From assembly GCF_000317125.1 (NCBI RefSeq), contig NC_019695.1:358336-422335 (forward strand): a stretch of 64,000 bases of DNA, written 5' to 3'. This stretch comes from Chroococcidiopsis thermalis PCC 7203 (lineage in GTDB: Bacteria; Cyanobacteriota; Cyanobacteriia; Cyanobacteriales; Chroococcidiopsidaceae). This document shows, piece after piece, positions 3,592-32,794 of the stretch (position 1 is the stretch's first letter; every line of letters begins with the position of its first letter). The translations under genes were made by a program, and so were the position numbers. The notes beneath the pieces were generated by a model. That model was not told the DNA's origin. It ran no database searches and worked only from the letters and a program-made list of their open reading frames with translations.

Positions 3592-4587
3592 TCAGCTCTC
3601 TTCCCCCTGCTCTCTGCTCCCAGCTCGTCCCTGCTCCCTCATCAGTACATCTTCTGCTAAAGCGACTGCACCCCAAAGTGGCGCTTTATCTCCCAAGGCG
3701 GCGGGGACGATCTCGAAGTGGACTTCGGGTAATGCTGTGGCTCGCGCTATGTGGTGGATAGCATTCCAAAAGCGATCGCCTGCTTTGGTGACGCTACCAC
3801 CTAAAATAAACCGTTGGGGATTGATGAGGTTGGCGACGTTGCCAATCGCTACTCCCAAAGCCCAACCAGCTGTTTCTAATGCCTCGATCGCAATTTTATC
3901 TCCTTGGGTAGCGGCTTGACTGACCATCAGTCCCGTTATCTCATCTAGGTTATCGTGACAAAGCGATCGCAACAGCTTCCCTTTATCTGGATGTAAATTT
4001 AACCGATCCTTGGTCTGTTGGGCGATGTAGGGACCAGAAGCCAGTCGTTCTAAGCATCCACGCTTACCGCACAAACAAACAGGACCAGTCGGATCGACGA
4101 CTACATGTCCGATCTCCCCTGCCATTCCTTCTATTCCCCGCCAAGGGCGATCGTTGAGAATCCAGCCTCCACCTACACCCGTGCTGACAGTAATATAAAG
4201 CAAACTGTTATAACCCATCCCCGCACCATAGCGATGTTCGCCCAATGCCGCGACATTCGCATCGTTGTCCACACTGGCAGGAGCGCCAAATTCTCGCTCT
4301 AGGATCTCCTGTAAAGGCATATTTTCCCACCCGCTGACGTGGTGCGACAGTCTGACTTTACCGCTTGTAGCATCCACAGGTCCACCAAAGCTGACACCGA
4401 TCGCCCTTGGTTCTCTACCTGCTAACAGTTCCCGTGCCAGACTCAACATTATCTCTAGATCGGATTGAGCATGAGGATTTGGCGGTGAAAAAACCCTTTT
4501 GTCACTCAACTGGTGTTTTTCTCCTGAAGCTACCACCGCCGCCGCGTGTTTAGTTCCACCAAAATCTAGCGCCAGAATTAGATTCAT
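3592..4587 (-). CDS. ROK family sugar kinase/regulator
   Basis: N-terminal LDFGGTK ATP-binding motif and the ROK zinc signature CLCGKRGCLE. The C-terminal tail (REQGRAGSREQGEES) is a translation of the repeat DNA, so the true stop may be slightly upstream. Confidence 0.8.
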   Translation of the reverse strand: MNLILALDFGGTKHAAAVVASGEKHQLSDKRVFSPPNPHAQSDLEIMLSLARELLAGREPRAIGVSFGGPVDATSGKVRLSHHVSGWENMPLQEILEREFGAPASVDNDANVAALGEHRYGAGMGYNSLLYITVSTGVGGGWILNDRPWRGIEGMAGEIGHVVVDPTGPVCLCGKRGCLERLASGPYIAQQTKDRLNLHPDKGKLLRSLCHDNLDEITGLMVSQAATQGDKIAIEALETAGWALGVAIGNVANLINPQRFILGGSVTKAGDRFWNAIHHIARATALPEVHFEIVPAALGDKAPLWGAVALAEDVLMREQGRAGSREQGEES

Positions 4588-27802: not shown

Positions 27803-28531
27803 TTAAACATTATCAAAACTACTAATAACGGGAAACCCTTCCGAATCTGATGTCCGATTGCCCGATCGCAGAGAAAAAAGCGTTCGCATTCCCGCTGCCT
27901 TAGCTGCTTTTAGTTCTGCCGTCACATCTGAAATAAACAGAATTTGTGTTGGTAACACTCCGATCGCTTGAGCAATCTTGCGATAACTTTCTGCCTCTTT
28001 TTTTGAGCCAGTTTCAGTATCAAAATAACCGCTCAAAAACCGAGTTAAATCGCCTGCTTCAGAATATTGAAATAACAATTTTTGTGCTTGAACGCTACCT
28101 GACGAAAAGATATACAATCGCTTACCCTCACGAATCCAACGTTCAAATGAAGGTTTAACATCGGGAAAAAGTTGCGATCGCAGCGTTCCATCTCGATAAC
28201 CGCTTTCCCAAATTTTCCCCTGTAACGATTTGAGTCCGGTAGATTTGCGATCGGTTGCTATTAAATAATGAATGTAAGGTACGGCGGCGGTTGCTGAATT
28301 ATCCACCCATTCAGGTACATTCAACCCCTGAGCAAAATCGGCTGCATACTCTTGCCGCAATCGCTCTAAATCTGCTTGTACTGCACTTTCCTGAAAATGA
28401 GTTTGCAAAAATGCTTCTACCTGCTTTTGAGCAAAAGGAAACAACACGCCGAAAACGTAATCAATCGGGGTTGTGGTTCCTTCAATATCGAGCAAAATAA
28501 TATCTGCACGAGCAGAATAGCGATCGGGCAT
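27803..28531 (-). CDS. mtnC: Enolase-phosphatase E1 (acireductone synthase), HAD family, methionine salvage
   Basis: N-terminal ILLDIEGTTTPI HAD motif I and FSSGSV motif. The length and C-terminal motifs match MtnC. Confidence 0.75.
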   Translation of the reverse strand: MPDRYSARADIILLDIEGTTTPIDYVFGVLFPFAQKQVEAFLQTHFQESAVQADLERLRQEYAADFAQGLNVPEWVDNSATAAVPYIHYLIATDRKSTGLKSLQGKIWESGYRDGTLRSQLFPDVKPSFERWIREGKRLYIFSSGSVQAQKLLFQYSEAGDLTRFLSGYFDTETGSKKEAESYRKIAQAIGVLPTQILFISDVTAELKAAKAAGMRTLFSLRSGNRTSDSEGFPVISSFDNV

Positions 28532-28687
28532 GGTTACACAGAAATAATTACATGCATCAACCCGATCCAGTATACATATAGGGAATACAGATATGGCAGT
28601 CCTACCTAATTTATGAAACTCAAGCTTTTTTAGCTACTCCCTGCTATATTTGCTAACACACCCTTTTCGTTACAATGAGAATATCTG

Positions 28688-28996
28688 TTGCAATACTTCT
28701 CTATGAGTCAACCTACTGCATCGATCAACACCAAACTCATTGACTCTCTGGCTCAAATTATCCTTTCCCTCACCGACGAGGAGCGCCAACTTCTGGCGCA
28801 AAAAATTCAACATTCACCGTTGTCTGAGGAAGAGCATCAACATAAAAAAGAAGCTTTACAACGAGATATTACTTTGGGTGTGGAACAACTCAAGAACGGC
28901 GACTACACCGAGTATAACGATTCCTCACTACCCAACTTATTTGAAAATATTAAGAGACGCGCTAAACAAAGACTTGAGCAGGAGCCAGCTCAGTGA
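28688..28996 (+). CDS. parD: ParD-family type II antitoxin
   Basis: GVEQLKNGDYTEYNDSSLPNLFENIKRRAKQR resembles the ParD/CC2985-type antitoxin C-terminus. ATGA overlap with the downstream toxin. Confidence 0.6.
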   Translation: MQYFSMSQPTASINTKLIDSLAQIILSLTDEERQLLAQKIQHSPLSEEEHQHKKEALQRDITLGVEQLKNGDYTEYNDSSLPNLFENIKRRAKQRLEQEPAQ

Positions 28997-29283
28997 ATCG
29001 CTTCCGTCTTTCACAACAGGCAGAACAAGACTTGGAAGATATCTGGGTTTATCTAGCACGACAGAATGAACTTTTAGCGGACAAACAGATTGCCCAAATA
29101 TTAGACCGATTCCCTATGTTATCTCAATTTCCTGATATGGGTAAACAGCGTAACAATTTACTCCCTGGACTTCGGAGCTTTCCCGTTCAGCCCTACATCG
29201 TTTTTTATACTAAAATTGCGGATGGCATCGAAATTGTTAGAGTCTTGCACCAATTTAGAGATATTGACAGCCAGTTGTCGTAA
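28993..29283 (+). CDS. parE: RelE/ParE-family type II toxin
   Basis: 96 aa; the QAEQDLEDIWVY...IVFYTKIADGIEIVRVLH pattern is typical of ParE toxins. Confidence 0.7.
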   Translation: MNRFRLSQQAEQDLEDIWVYLARQNELLADKQIAQILDRFPMLSQFPDMGKQRNNLLPGLRSFPVQPYIVFYTKIADGIEIVRVLHQFRDIDSQLS

Positions 29284-29376: not shown

Positions 29377-30420
29377 ATGGTTGTTAAACATCAAGCTACT
29401 ATTCCACGCTTAACTGAAGGTAGTATCGAACAGTTACGCAAGAGAGGATTACCTGAATGCAACACTGATGAAGAAATAGCATTAGCAATGGGAATCAGCG
29501 TCGAAAAGCTGCATTTTTTAGCTGGCGATCGCTCTATATCTTCTACTTCACTTTATTCCCGCTTTCAGATTTCCAAAAAAACAGGTGCAGCGAGAACAAT
29601 TACTGCACCAACGCCCGAACTAAAAGCTGCTCAAAGATGGATTTTAAAGCATATTTTAGATAAGATAGAAATTCACGATGCAGCTCATGGTTTTTGTCGC
29701 GATCGCTCTATTGTTACCAATGCCACACCGCATGTAGGTAGAGATGTAATAGTAAAACTCGATCTACAAAACTTTTTTCAATTAATTACATATAAACGTG
29801 TCAAAGAATTATTTCATGGTTTTGGTTATTCTGAAACTGCGGCAACAATTTTTGGATTAATCTGTACGATCGCGACAACAAATAATAGTAATAAAACGAG
29901 CTGTAAAAATATAGAAAAACGTCACTTACCTGAAGGTGCGCCAACCAGCCCTGCTATTTCAAATCTGGTTTGCGATCGCCTCGATACGCATTTAACTAAA
30001 CTTGCCAATAATCTTGGATTTCGCTATACACGTTATGCCGACGATCTAACATTTTCTTGTTATGGAGCAGCTCATAAAGTAGATAAATTAATTCAAGAAA
30101 GTAAATCGATCGTTACTCAAGAAAGCTTTACAGTTAATTCTGATAAAACTCAAGTTTTAAGCAAATCTGTACAACAAATAGTCACGGGTATTGTGGTAAA
30201 CCAACAATTAAATCTATCTCGAAAAACGTTGAAAGCTTTCCGAGCTACTTTGTATCAAATCGAACGAGAAGGTTTATCAGGTAAAAAATGGGGGAATTCA
30301 AATAATTTAATTGCTACAATTACTGGGTTTGCTAACTACGTAGCAATGGTTAACCCCAGCAAAGGCGCAGAATTTTTAGCATCAGTAGAACGGATTAAAC
30401 AGAAATGCGATCGCTCCTAA
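29377..30420 (+). CDS. Retron-type reverse transcriptase (Ec86/retron-Eco1-like)
   Basis: Clear colinear similarity to the Ec86 RT as I recall it: LRKRGLP..ISVEKL, ELKAAQRWILKHILDK, NATPHVGRDVIVKLDLQNFF, LPEGAPTSPAISNLVCDRLD, YTRYADDLTFS (YADD) and the retron-specific VTG motif (IVTGIVVNQ). Confidence 0.85.
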   Translation: MVVKHQATIPRLTEGSIEQLRKRGLPECNTDEEIALAMGISVEKLHFLAGDRSISSTSLYSRFQISKKTGAARTITAPTPELKAAQRWILKHILDKIEIHDAAHGFCRDRSIVTNATPHVGRDVIVKLDLQNFFQLITYKRVKELFHGFGYSETAATIFGLICTIATTNNSNKTSCKNIEKRHLPEGAPTSPAISNLVCDRLDTHLTKLANNLGFRYTRYADDLTFSCYGAAHKVDKLIQESKSIVTQESFTVNSDKTQVLSKSVQQIVTGIVVNQQLNLSRKTLKAFRATLYQIEREGLSGKKWGNSNNLIATITGFANYVAMVNPSKGAEFLASVERIKQKCDRS

Positions 30421-30597
30421 GTTGTGAATAAAATATACAACTTGAGTAATTTCTCGCTTGCTATTTGCGGTTGTTGTGTTAAATTTATACCGAAGTAGTT
30501 GTAAAGTTACAAAGCTGTAGTACGGGTTCTGCATACCCGACTGGTACGCTGACTCATAGTATAAGCGTATACCGCAAAGTACTTTAGCTATTGCACC

Positions 30598-30669
30598 GTT
30601 TGATTAGCTCAGTTGGTAAGAGCGCCTGCTGTATGCGGGATGACCCAGGTTCAAATCCTGTATCAAACC
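30598..30669 (+). ncRNA. tRNA-like element 1 (pseudo-tRNA; anticodon loop reduced to 5 nt)
   Basis: Hand-folded: acceptor GTTTGAT/ATCAAAC, U8, D-arm GCTC-AGTTGGTAA-GAGC, T-arm CCAGG-TTCAAAT-CCTGT. The anticodon arm folds only as CCTGC-tgtat-GCGGG, a 5-nt loop. Confidence 0.5.
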
Positions 30670-30671
30670 CC

Positions 30672-30745
30672 CGAAAGTTAGCTCATTTGGTTAGAGCAAT
30701 CGGTGTATCGCCGATTGGTAGCAGGTTCGATTCCTGTACTTTCTC
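30672..30745 (+). ncRNA. tRNA-like element 2 (non-canonical anticodon loop UGUAUCG, no U33)
   Basis: Acceptor cGAAAGT/ACTTTCt with a mismatched first pair, D-arm GCTC-ATTTGGTTA-GAGC, anticodon stem ATCGG/CCGAT with loop TGTATCG, T-arm GCAGG-TTCGATT-CCTGT. Confidence 0.5.
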
Positions 30746-31207
30746 CAAAATCCCCTCGTCCTGGGTACGGACACCTTGTTAGGGACAAGGCAATTTAACG
30801 GATACAGGTTAGGCGAAGTCTAACGCTGGACGTGTTTGTTTGATGAGTTCGTGAATTACTCTGTCATGCAGGTGTTTTATTGCAGTTCAGGAGCCAGCGC
30901 AAATGTAATTCTCTCTAACTTGAGTATGTCCTTCGTTTTCCCAATCCGATTCTCTACAGAGACTCTGGCACAGGCAAATCGAACGGCGTATTTGAGCGTT
31001 GTTGGCTTTGGTTGAATTACCTTCGGGTGTTCTGGCAAGGTTACAGCACTCTTCATCCAGTTTTGGAGAATCTTTTGCCCGCACCAAGATTGTTAACCCC
31101 TGTACTGGCAGAGTAAAACATATTTTTGTATTATATGTAGTATACCGAAATTATCTTGCTAAGGGTTGTAAGCTCCTGGTTAGTAGCTAAAGCTGCCAAA
31201 AAGACGA

Positions 31208-32794
31208 ATGTTCTTATCTAATCTTCTCCGGCGGGTACAGTTGCCCAAATTATCGATTCAAATTTCTATGTGGAAAACCTTTTACATCAAGCCTAACGAA
31301 ATCGGAATTTTATATTACCGCAGCGATTTTAAGAAGATTTTACAGCCAGGAACTTACACTTATTTGGGTCGCCACTGGCAAGTCAAAACTTATGACTTGA
31401 ACCAGCCAGAAGTTAAGATTGAAAATTTAGAATTATTGCTCAGAACCCACGAAGCCGAATTACAAGAGCATCTATTAATTATTAGAACAGCATTTAACCA
31501 AGCTGCTTTAGTACGCTGCGGTCAAACCTGGATAAGTGTCATGCCAAATCAACTACGTGCTTTTTGGCGTGGCTTTATTGAGGTAGAATCTCATATTTTC
31601 AATTTAGAAGAAAGTCTAGAATTACCTGCTGAATTTGTTCAGCAATTGCGCGGACTTGCCATAAACGGATTGAAAAAATTCCAAATTTCAGAGTATGAAA
31701 TTGGCTTGCTATACGTTCAAAATAACTTTATTAGACCTCTAGAACAAGGGGAATATGCTTTTTGGACTGTAAATCGGGATGTTGCACTAAGAACTCTCAG
31801 CCGGATCGTACCTAACCCAGACTTTCCACTAGAAGATGTAATGATTGAACAACATCCTGAGTTTGTTTCAGCCTATTGCGAAGTCGTACAATTACAAGAT
31901 CGACAAGTAGCAATTGTCCGGTATTTGGGTAAAGTTATTGCTATTTTGCCACCTACAAGCCGCAAGTTATTTTGGCGCGGTGTGGAATTGGAAATGATCG
32001 ATATTAGTAGCAATGCTAAATTATCGCCTAATTTAGTAGCAGAATTGTTGGCAGGTTCTAAAGAAGTTCTATTACTAAGCCATAACAGTTTGCACGTTCG
32101 AGAAGTACCCGCGCAGCACGTTGGTTTATTGTATGTAAATCAAGAATTTCAAGCTTTACTAGAGCCAGGAATACATGCTTGGTGGTTGTATGGACGCTCC
32201 TTTCAAACTGAAGTGATTGACATGCGTTTGCAAAATATCGAGGTATCCGGTCAAGATATTCTATCAAAAGATAAAGTTCCTCTACGCTTGAACTTAACTG
32301 CTGGTTTTCGCATTCAAGATCCGCTGAGAGCAAAAAATGGTTTATCAGATATTTCTAGTTTCTTGTATAAAGAATTACAGTTTGCTTTACGTGCAGCAGT
32401 TGGCGAACAAACTTTGGATGCACTATTAGAAAATAAAGGTGCGATCGATCGCAGTGTTGCTGAATACATTCGTAGCAAAACCGCAGACTATGGAATTGAA
32501 GTTGATTCTGTCGGGGTGAAAGATATAATTTTACCTGGCGAGATTAAGACAATATTGAGCAAGGTAGTAGAAGCGGAAAAAGCTGCTCAAGCAAACGTAG
32601 TTAGACGCAGAGAAGAAACCGCAGCTACTCGCAGTATGTTAAATACTGCAAAAGTGATGGAAGATAACCCTGTTGCTTTGCGTTTGAAAGAATTGGAGGT
32701 ATTAGAACGAATTGCAGAAAAGATCGATCGCATTCAAGTTAATGGCAGTTTAGATAGTATTTTGACCGAATTAATTCAGATTAATCGGCAATAA
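31208..32794 (+). CDS. SPFH/band-7 (stomatin/prohibitin-like) protein with three degenerate N-terminal SPFH-N repeats
   Basis: The C-terminal half is a canonical band-7 domain plus coiled coil (KDIILPGEIKTILSKVVEAEKAAQANVVRRREETAA). The N-terminal 300 aa hold three repeats of an E(I/Y)G(I/L)LY...PG(T/E/I) motif. Confidence 0.75.
   Translation: MFLSNLLRRVQLPKLSIQISMWKTFYIKPNEIGILYYRSDFKKILQPGTYTYLGRHWQVKTYDLNQPEVKIENLELLLRTHEAELQEHLLIIRTAFNQAALVRCGQTWISVMPNQLRAFWRGFIEVESHIFNLEESLELPAEFVQQLRGLAINGLKKFQISEYEIGLLYVQNNFIRPLEQGEYAFWTVNRDVALRTLSRIVPNPDFPLEDVMIEQHPEFVSAYCEVVQLQDRQVAIVRYLGKVIAILPPTSRKLFWRGVELEMIDISSNAKLSPNLVAELLAGSKEVLLLSHNSLHVREVPAQHVGLLYVNQEFQALLEPGIHAWWLYGRSFQTEVIDMRLQNIEVSGQDILSKDKVPLRLNLTAGFRIQDPLRAKNGLSDISSFLYKELQFALRAAVGEQTLDALLENKGAIDRSVAEYIRSKTADYGIEVDSVGVKDIILPGEIKTILSKVVEAEKAAQANVVRRREETAATRSMLNTAKVMEDNPVALRLKELEVLERIAEKIDRIQVNGSLDSILTELIQINRQ

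Follow-up and report, generated by a model that had tools for sequence, protein, structure and literature searches.

The stretch of DNA analysed here, a 64-kb window from Chroococcidiopsis thermalis PCC 7203 to which all coordinates refer, carries a gene for a retron-type reverse transcriptase (RT) followed by a slipin gene. The two are separated by a spacer of 787 nucleotides (nt) without a conserved open reading frame (ORF), and the interval under study, 30421-30597 (177 nt), is the first part of this spacer. A first-pass annotation had proposed that the interval is a compact retron msr/msd unit placed downstream of the RT. The current work indicates instead that it is very probably the promoter and the folded 5' domain of a conserved composite cyanobacterial RNA of about 620 nt (30492-31115), made of a 5' domain (A), two tRNA-like domains, two small hairpins, a linker and a large 3' domain (B). 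The features of the locus are listed below.

27803-28531, minus strand: HAD hydrolase.
28704-28996 and 28993-29283 (overlapping), plus strand: ParD/ParE-like pair; the ParE_toxin call was made on an orthologue.
29377-30420, plus strand: retron-type RT of 347 amino acids (aa), short subclade of the type XIII lineage, identified by PADLOC RT_XIII and Pfam RVT_1.
30421-30474, plus strand: RT 3' flank and upstream promoter region, conserved in close relatives alone.
30458-30463, plus strand: -35-like TTGCTA, a putative assignment.
30477-30485, plus strand: extended -10 TGnTAAATT (TG at 30477-78, hexamer at 30480-85), with invariant positions in 28-29 homologues.
30492-30594, plus strand: A domain of five helices, from RNAalifold and pair counts on 29 sequences.
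30598-30671, plus strand: tRNA-like domain 1 ("Tyr GTA", short variable arm, constricted anticodon loop), from ARAGORN and Rfam tRNA.
30672-30746, plus strand: tRNA-like domain 2 ("Ile TAT", G at position 33), from ARAGORN and Rfam tRNA.
30757-30791, plus strand: two small hairpins (GTCC/GGAC and CCTTGT/ACAAGG), kept in type-1 copies.
30792-30856, plus strand: variable linker, 46% identical to close relatives, with indels.
30857-31115, plus strand: B domain of about 260 nt, multi-helix, with a 16-bp closing helix (30857-30872 with 31099-31115), supported by covariation.
31136-31143, plus strand: TrcR-type operator/-10 box TGTAGTAT before the slipin gene, a single match in the 64-kb window.
31208-32794, plus strand: slipin/SPFH (Band_7) gene of 528 aa, Pfam Band_7 E=7.8e-29.

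The A, tRNA-like and B domains are conserved and show covariation. The A domain is composed of helices 30492-99/30587-94, 30504-07/30581-84, 30514-15/30574-75, 30518-27/30535-43 and 30544-49/30565-70. Its alignment of 29 distinct sequences was examined with RNAalifold, pair counts, shuffles and slid-register controls; 96.0% of the cells of its 28 pairs are paired and 12 pairs have changed on both sides, values reached by none of 500 shuffles, and slid registers pair only 24-46%. Examples of covarying columns are 51/67 (UA 11, CG 9, UG 7), 52/66 (GC 18, AU 9) and 33/113 (GC 19, UA 6). The B domain, in which the long-range closing helix of 16 bp encloses four further helices, behaves in the same way: of its 52 pairs, 20 have changed on both sides, 95.8% of the cells are paired, none of 500 shuffles attains these values, and slid controls pair 37-46%. 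Covariation is found as well in the small hairpins (pair 398/411: UA 19, CG 9) and in the cloverleaf of tRNA-like domain 2 (alignment A4, pairs 243/251: GC 17, AU 11; and 262/276: UA 18, CG 9). Complementarity between the A hairpin loop and the anticodon loops, or between single strands of A and B, was sought by eye; some lineages match, and none of these matches covaries consistently.

Identity to two relatives amounts to 93-97% in 30475-30597, 97-99% in the tRNA-like domains and 88-94% in 30857-31121, compared with 85-86% in the RT coding sequence. Close relatives show a synonymous divergence (dS) of 0.28-0.50 from the window, yet in A and the tRNA-like domains the difference is just 1-7%. 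In many cyanobacterial loci, blastn and nhmmer find the same four blocks in the same order (A, one to three tRNA-like domains, hairpins, B), a unit termed the module in this report, and a B-domain pattern run against metagenomes gave 20 further loci. The same pattern had no match in viral contigs, and only generic tRNA matches came from phage and plasmid collections; a mobile or viral origin was rejected on these grounds. Rfam 15 holds no family for 30475-30597 or 30857-31115 (E<=10), nor for the homologous parts of two other loci, L003 and L108 (E<=1). Literature searches (retron with tRNA-like; slipin with tRNA-like) found no description of the composite RNA, and the small-RNA catalogue of PMC4734099 has no entry at the coordinates in question. 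The composite RNA is thus without a family in Rfam 15 and without a description as a structured RNA in searchable papers.

Several observations behind the first-pass annotation were correct. The 8-nt inverted repeat that it took for an a1/a2 boundary is present, with TTTGCGGT occupying 30464-30471 and ACCGCAAA, its exact reverse complement, occupying 30571-30578. The interval is non-coding: for all five small ORFs of the spacer region coding potential was rejected, with stops and frameshifts breaking them even in close relatives. Two abutting tRNA-like elements do lie downstream, and no retron non-coding RNA (ncRNA) precedes the RT, where the 93 nt from the ParE-like stop codon to the RT ATG are unconserved and the type XIII profile is silent throughout the window. 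An msr/msd upstream of the RT was considered and rejected, as only 93-130 nt are available there and they are not conserved. The central claim, that the repeat bounds an msr/msd, did not survive. When the 177 nt were shuffled 2000 times with dinucleotides preserved, 28% of the shuffles contained one or more perfect 8-nt inverted repeats, and the pairing is broken in three of three syntenic relatives, whose RTs are 78-82% aa identical to that of the window. In these relatives the 3' arm is invariant, and no patch of the intergenic region is less conserved than the 5' arm (CTCGCAGT, ATTGCAGT and ACCGTGGT in alignment A2); the proposed pairing has therefore been lost, without compensation or covariation. 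The CG within the 3' arm pairs with GC at 30514-15 in the covarying fold, not with 30464-71. The 5' arm would lie in a promoter spacer upstream of the predicted start, which explains its variability, and the positions where a branching G would be expected 3' of a1, 30472-30474, fall within the unconserved stretch upstream of the conserved -10.

The fold of the interval and the comparison with retron RNAs lead to the same outcome. Single-sequence folding of the 177 nt is ordinary (minimum free energy, z = -1.06), no Rfam retron model matches, and the type XIII nhmmer profile gives only noise in the window (E=4.3). Neither A nor B is homologous to the type XIII ncRNA by blastn or nhmmer, and a CTTGAGT heptamer common to them was judged coincidental. 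A long msd-type hairpin is absent from the covarying folds, in which A is a five-helix junction and B is branched and multi-helix. The proposed palindrome GTACGGGT...ACCCGAC...GGTAC was half right: its CGGGU/ACCCG part is the tip of covarying helix 4, and its outer GTAC/GTAC register is unsupported. A reading of the 177 nt as msr/msd, with a1/a2 at 30464-71/30571-78 and the branching G just after a1, can draw on the presence of the repeat, the lack of an ncRNA upstream of the RT and the retron hallmark motifs of the RT. Given the chance-level repeat, the broken pairing and a 5' arm lying upstream both of the conserved -10 and of the transcription start site (TSS) mapped in the PCC 7120 homologue, this reading is extremely improbable. 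At the level of sequence, every retron msr/msd criterion that computation can address fails, and a canonical msr/msd identity of the interval is rejected. What the first-pass annotation flagged on the wrong grounds, by way of a chance repeat, is a real structured RNA: a conserved one starts inside the interval, downstream of the RT, with a different fold and not as a 100-200 nt msr/msd.

Conservation among homologues begins abruptly at yTGTGyTAnATT, the first 54 nt after the RT stop being unconserved beyond the closest relatives. Positions T3, G4, T6, A7, T10 and T11 of this element, invariant in 28-29 homologues, correspond to an extended -10, TGnTAnnnT, and 30477-30485 is accordingly a candidate promoter in this window. 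Transcript ends are available from Nostoc sp. PCC 7120, where the module lies between alr0738 and alr0739 with no RT at the locus. The transcription unit TU00468 (PMC10287535, sheet "TU") extends over 860584-861138 on the forward strand, 554 nt, with TSS gTSS_860584f and gene allrt08. The start at 860584 is 8 nt after the homologous -10 hexamer, on the column where A helix 1 begins to pair; at its other end the transcript finishes within the 3' strand of the homologous B closing helix. Since both ends match the limits of A and B, the composite RNA is a discrete transcript in PCC 7120. By comparison with these homologous transcript ends, the window RNA is predicted to have its own promoter and to extend from about 30492 to about 31115.

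The module was found in all five RT-less reference genomes tested: PCC 7120 (two assemblies), Gloeothece PCC 7424, Fischerella and Calothrix NIES-2098. In PCC 7120, PCC 7424 and Fischerella it is located upstream of slipin or of ydeI(OmdA)-slipin. In Calothrix NIES-2098 (L111), a histidine-kinase gene is preceded by a full module with three tRNA-like domains (1218-1935), and ydeI-slipin directly follows a degenerate remnant of A and B (4145-4342). Three metagenome loci (L096, L104 and L106) likewise have the module and slipin without an RT. Genomes that have no RT near the RNA still keep it, at a conserved single-copy locus, and its primary role therefore does not depend on the RT.

The slipin gene beside the module is itself strongly conserved, with at least 79% aa identity across cyanobacterial orders (81-95% in one of the comparisons) and a ratio of nonsynonymous to synonymous substitution rates (dN/dS) of 0.07-0.10. 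Residues 22-68, 158-199 and 301-342 of the protein resemble one another (W/F-x-I-x-x-x-E-x-G-[IL]-L-Y...) and are located in front of and inside Band_7, which suggests a slipin with a triplicated N-terminal SPFH-like unit. In PCC 7120, deletion of trcR raises alr0739 72-fold and alr0740 42-fold; alr0739-alr0740 are induced by chloramphenicol and erythromycin along with rtcB, HNH endonuclease genes and a plasmid tRNA array, and TrcR binds the alr0739 promoter at a box close to TGTAGTAT that overlaps the -10 (PMC10272220, PMC9938897). The window has a single copy of the TGTAGTAT octamer, at 31136-31143 between B and slipin, and in most homologues it or its reverse complement is found 15-25 nt after B. 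With a TrcR-type box just past B, the 3' end of the RNA is closely followed by a stress-regulated promoter, and the composite RNA would functionally be part of the adjacent TrcR translation-stress regulon.

The tRNA-like domains have both ordinary and odd properties. Domains 1 and 2 reach 44.8 and 44.3 bits with Rfam tRNA (RF00005; gathering score 29), and the homologous Nostocales domains score 52-72 bits and look canonical. A canonical 7-nt anticodon loop with U33 is not found in the window copies, which have a 5-nt, constricted loop or G33, and the anticodon and short variable arm of the "Tyr" domain do not fit one amino-acid identity. Comparison of 30598-30746 with the homologous domains of other loci (L001-L003, L010, L014 and L108-L114) gave at least 15 called anticodons on a near-constant body: GTA, TAT, CAT, GTT, TAA, TCC, GCG, GAG, ATT, AAT, TCT, GTC, CTG, TGA and GAT. 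Several are non-standard (ATT, AAT, TAT and GCG among them) or incompatible with the short variable arm. The number of domains varies from one to three among homologous modules, and domain 1 is missing in some, such as the Nostoc downstream copies. Since number and anticodons vary freely between lineages, the domains are more readily seen as structural or processing modules, recognised by RNase P/Z or other tRNA-binding factors, than as decoders; some of them may be charged. The two domains of one module also tend to have the same loop, UGUAU in the window and CUCAUAA in Nostocales.

The RT of the window belongs to the type XIII retron lineage (PADLOC RT_XIII E=3.4e-148; Pfam RVT_1). The NAxxH, VTG and YADD motifs are invariant among 20 RT homologues (alignment A1), and a dN/dS of 0.18-0.44 points to purifying selection. 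RTs of the short subclade have 347-368 aa, compared with about 470 aa in canonical type XIII RTs, and an N-terminal extension of about 120 aa is missing in the window RT. Among 80 related RT loci from cyanobacteria, Acidobacteriota, Myxococcota and other phyla, 62 have the canonical type XIII ncRNA of about 200 nt just upstream of the RT (nhmmer profile, down to E ~1e-58); the profile had no match in any short-class or module locus examined. No SWIM gene was found in the flanks examined of short-class RTs, and beside the window RT there is neither a SWIM Zn-finger nor a HEAT/ARM accessory gene; long-class cyanobacterial loci have SWIM genes.

Every short-class RT examined, in a sample of some 15-20 independent loci from about five groups (Chroococcidiopsidales, Nostocales, Oscillatoriales, Oculatellaceae and Chamaesiphon), is co-oriented with the module and adjoins it. 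The order is RT-module-slipin in the window and its relatives (L081-L086), or module-RT-module-slipin in Nostoc, Oscillatoria PCC 7112 and Aulosira, and the distance is 58-128 nt from RT stop to module start, or 13-53 nt from B end to RT ATG. In the second, Nostoc-type arrangement the RT ORF starts 13-16 nt past the B helix, inside the TGTAGTAT box, and the N-terminal RT residues are conserved; the RT mRNA therefore begins further upstream. A long-class RT that lacks the canonical ncRNA is also found beside a module (L099). The neighbourhood evidence that the short subclade uses the composite RNA is strong, and such use is regarded here as a possibility, less likely than not.

Some further features of these loci may be recorded. 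The RT neighbours in the window are HAD, ParDE-like, slipin and LPG synthase genes. The ParD/ParE-like pair is present in the window and in Scytonema millei (L081/L082) and absent in TDX16 and in L084-L086, where the RT directly follows HAD; the pair looks like a recent toxin-antitoxin insertion upstream of the RT. A TAGTAT/CAGTATACATA motif, resembling the TrcR box and a -10, lies in the HAD-RT divergent promoter region (about 3905-3920 in L083 and L084, about 28560-28580 in the window, where it is upstream of the inserted ParDE pair), a hint that the RT may share the stress regulation. In Chamaesiphon (L010, 5073-6194, minus strand) a DDE transposase is located between the short-class RT and the module, the only gap of more than 1 kb that an insertion sequence explains. 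Among canonical loci, tandem msr-msd copies upstream of the RT (about 200 nt each, about 300-320 nt apart) are frequent, occurring in L020, L025, L030, L016, L034, L035, L040, L041, L056, L060 and L071, with three copies in L060 and two in many others. In L019 (2902-3579), rnc (RNase III) is 35 nt upstream of a long-class type XIII RT, with the ncRNA and SWIM about 2 kb further upstream.

The phylogeny of the B domain tracks host lineages, and the upstream and downstream copies of one genome cluster together, a pattern that fits vertical descent with duplication or gene conversion. A horizontally moving cassette of RT and type-1 module was rejected, as B cores cluster by host and type-1 modules also occur without an RT (L101, PCC 7424). 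Loss of the RT by recombination between the flanking repeats is plausible. In an Oculatellaceae locus (L113, 5713-8833), a second module is split between its A/tRNA-like part and B by a group II intron ORF (RVT_N, RVT_1, GIIM, HNH).

The explanation preferred here would place, within the 177 nt, an unconserved RT 3' flank (30421-30474), the extended -10 (30477-30485) and the A domain from the first transcribed nucleotide; A would open the composite RNA, and the TrcR-type operator/-10 box and then the slipin gene would follow B. The RT would be a lineage-specific accessory, acting on the composite RNA as partner or template in place of msr-msd. Several facts weigh against parts of this explanation. 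Gene neighbourhood is the sole evidence linking RT and RNA; B follows the hosts, with no independent sign of the two moving together. The -35 element is weak, and a promoter and terminator scan called nothing usable between RT and slipin, the extended -10 being just under the threshold of the tool. Read-through from the RT is possible in C. thermalis, the transcript evidence coming from PCC 7120. Finally, the Nostocales domains score as good tRNAs and the one in PCC 7120 carries a tRNA-gene annotation, allrt08, so that in Nostocales at least the unit could be an unusual pre-tRNA transcript.

In that last alternative A would be a long structured 5' leader and B a 3' trailer of stress tRNA genes, and the RT would be an unrelated neighbour. 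Besides domains above the Rfam gathering score and the allrt08 annotation, it gains from the canonical CUCAUAA or CUGUUAA anticodon loops and encoded CCA of Nostocales copies, and from the stress-induced tRNA array of the adjacent regulon (PMC10272220). It is quite unlikely when one considers that A and B are conserved as well as the tRNA parts, with strong covariation, that one body carries such odd anticodons as Tyr GTA, Leu TAA with short variable arms, Ile TAT, Ile AAT, Asn ATT and Arg GCG, that the window copies have a 5-nt or G33 loop, and that the short-class RT always adjoins. The RNA could also be a cis-acting leader, attenuator- or riboswitch-like, of the next gene (slipin, ydeI or RT). 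A co-oriented gene within about 10-650 nt in nearly all loci examined (none was identified in L087, L089 and L094) and the Nostoc-type RT ORF that starts 13-16 nt after B, so that its mRNA begins further upstream, speak for a leader; however, the PCC 7120 transcript stops at the B helix and has an entry separate from that of alr0739-0740, the TrcR operator/-10 sits between B and the gene, and in Calothrix another gene separates the module from slipin. A leader function is thus considered unlikely.

There is more to be said for the composite RNA, or B, as the working ncRNA of the RT, with the B closing helix as a1/a2 or the tRNA-like 3' end as initiation site, and this is a possibility that we treat as tentative. 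The system would then be retron-like but non-canonical, its RT copying or priming on part of the tRNA-like-bearing RNA. All short-class loci examined (100%) combine RT and module in one orientation; the canonical msr-msd has been lost there, and the examined flanks hold no SWIM gene; Nostoc-type B ends about 15-20 nt before the RT ATG, the usual place of a retron ncRNA; and the long-class RT of L099 without canonical ncRNA is again beside the module. On the other side, the RNA is equally conserved and discretely transcribed where no RT is nearby, B is branched and multi-helix with invariant loops rather than an msr with a long msd hairpin, and the alignment of homologues has no invariant unpaired G just after the 5' strand of that closing helix.

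Known systems offer partial likenesses to the preferred arrangement of a composite RNA with an accessory RT. Type XIII retrons include Mx162, Mx65, Ne144 and Sa163 (Mestre et al. 2020, PMC7736814). The window RT belongs to that lineage (RT_XIII, NAxxH/VTG/YADD) and has an RNA gene beside it; unlike those retrons, it has no msr-msd of about 200 nt, no N-terminal extension and no SWIM or HEAT/ARM gene in the flanks examined, and the RNA beside it is three times longer, branched, tRNA-like-bearing and also found without any RT. The YrlA or Y RNA-like RNAs (RF02553) are similar in that they too are ncRNAs enclosing a tRNA-like domain and linked to RNA repair or translation stress, and rtcB is co-regulated with the alr0739-0740 operon in Nostoc PCC 7120 (PMC10272220). 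The YrlA model, however, gives only 18.6 bits for the window and 31.7 for L003, compared with a gathering score of 69, and the tRNA part drives the score; no rsr/Ro60 neighbour exists, and the flanking domains and size of the composite RNA are quite different.

OLE, GOLLD and ROOL are highly conserved multi-helix RNAs of several hundred nucleotides and unclear biochemical function; GOLLD and ROOL often have tRNA genes as neighbours, and OLE acts together with membrane proteins during stress. The composite RNA differs from them in having no Rfam match (E<=10), in belonging to another phylum, in its internal tRNA-like domains and in its fixed chromosomal locus beside slipin. Use of tRNA-like structures by RTs is known from the 3' tRNA-like end of the Mauriceville retroplasmid and from tRNA-primed long terminal repeat (LTR) elements. 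A resemblance exists in the RT gene beside tRNA-like domains and in the Nostoc-type RT flanked by direct repeats that contain them; in contrast to those elements, no sign of mobility is seen (single-copy, syntenic, host-tracking B phylogeny, no phage or plasmid copies), and the RT is retron-type.

If the composite RNA is what it appears to be, many cyanobacteria, Nostoc PCC 7120 included, would carry an undescribed large multi-domain RNA with one to three tRNA-like modules and a very strongly conserved structure, placed before an operon that translation inhibitors induce along with rtcB and a spare-tRNA array. It would offer a genetically tractable way into how cyanobacteria sense or repair damage to the translation apparatus. 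The RT would be a natural member of the retron lineage, under selection and with intact motifs, that has no msr-msd and always lies against another structured RNA; finding its template would test how fixed the pairing of retron RT and ncRNA is, and might yield an RT/template pair for DNA-writing tools. A bolder scenario, speculative and put forward with corresponding caution, is that the subclade gave up msr-msd and the SWIM effector and now works on the host RNA of about 620 nt from the TrcR regulon, copying or priming upon tRNA-directed damage or phage attack, with slipin as the output. The outcome would be a system derived from a retron that has, as its RNA partner, a conserved RNA of the cell with a role independent of the RT.

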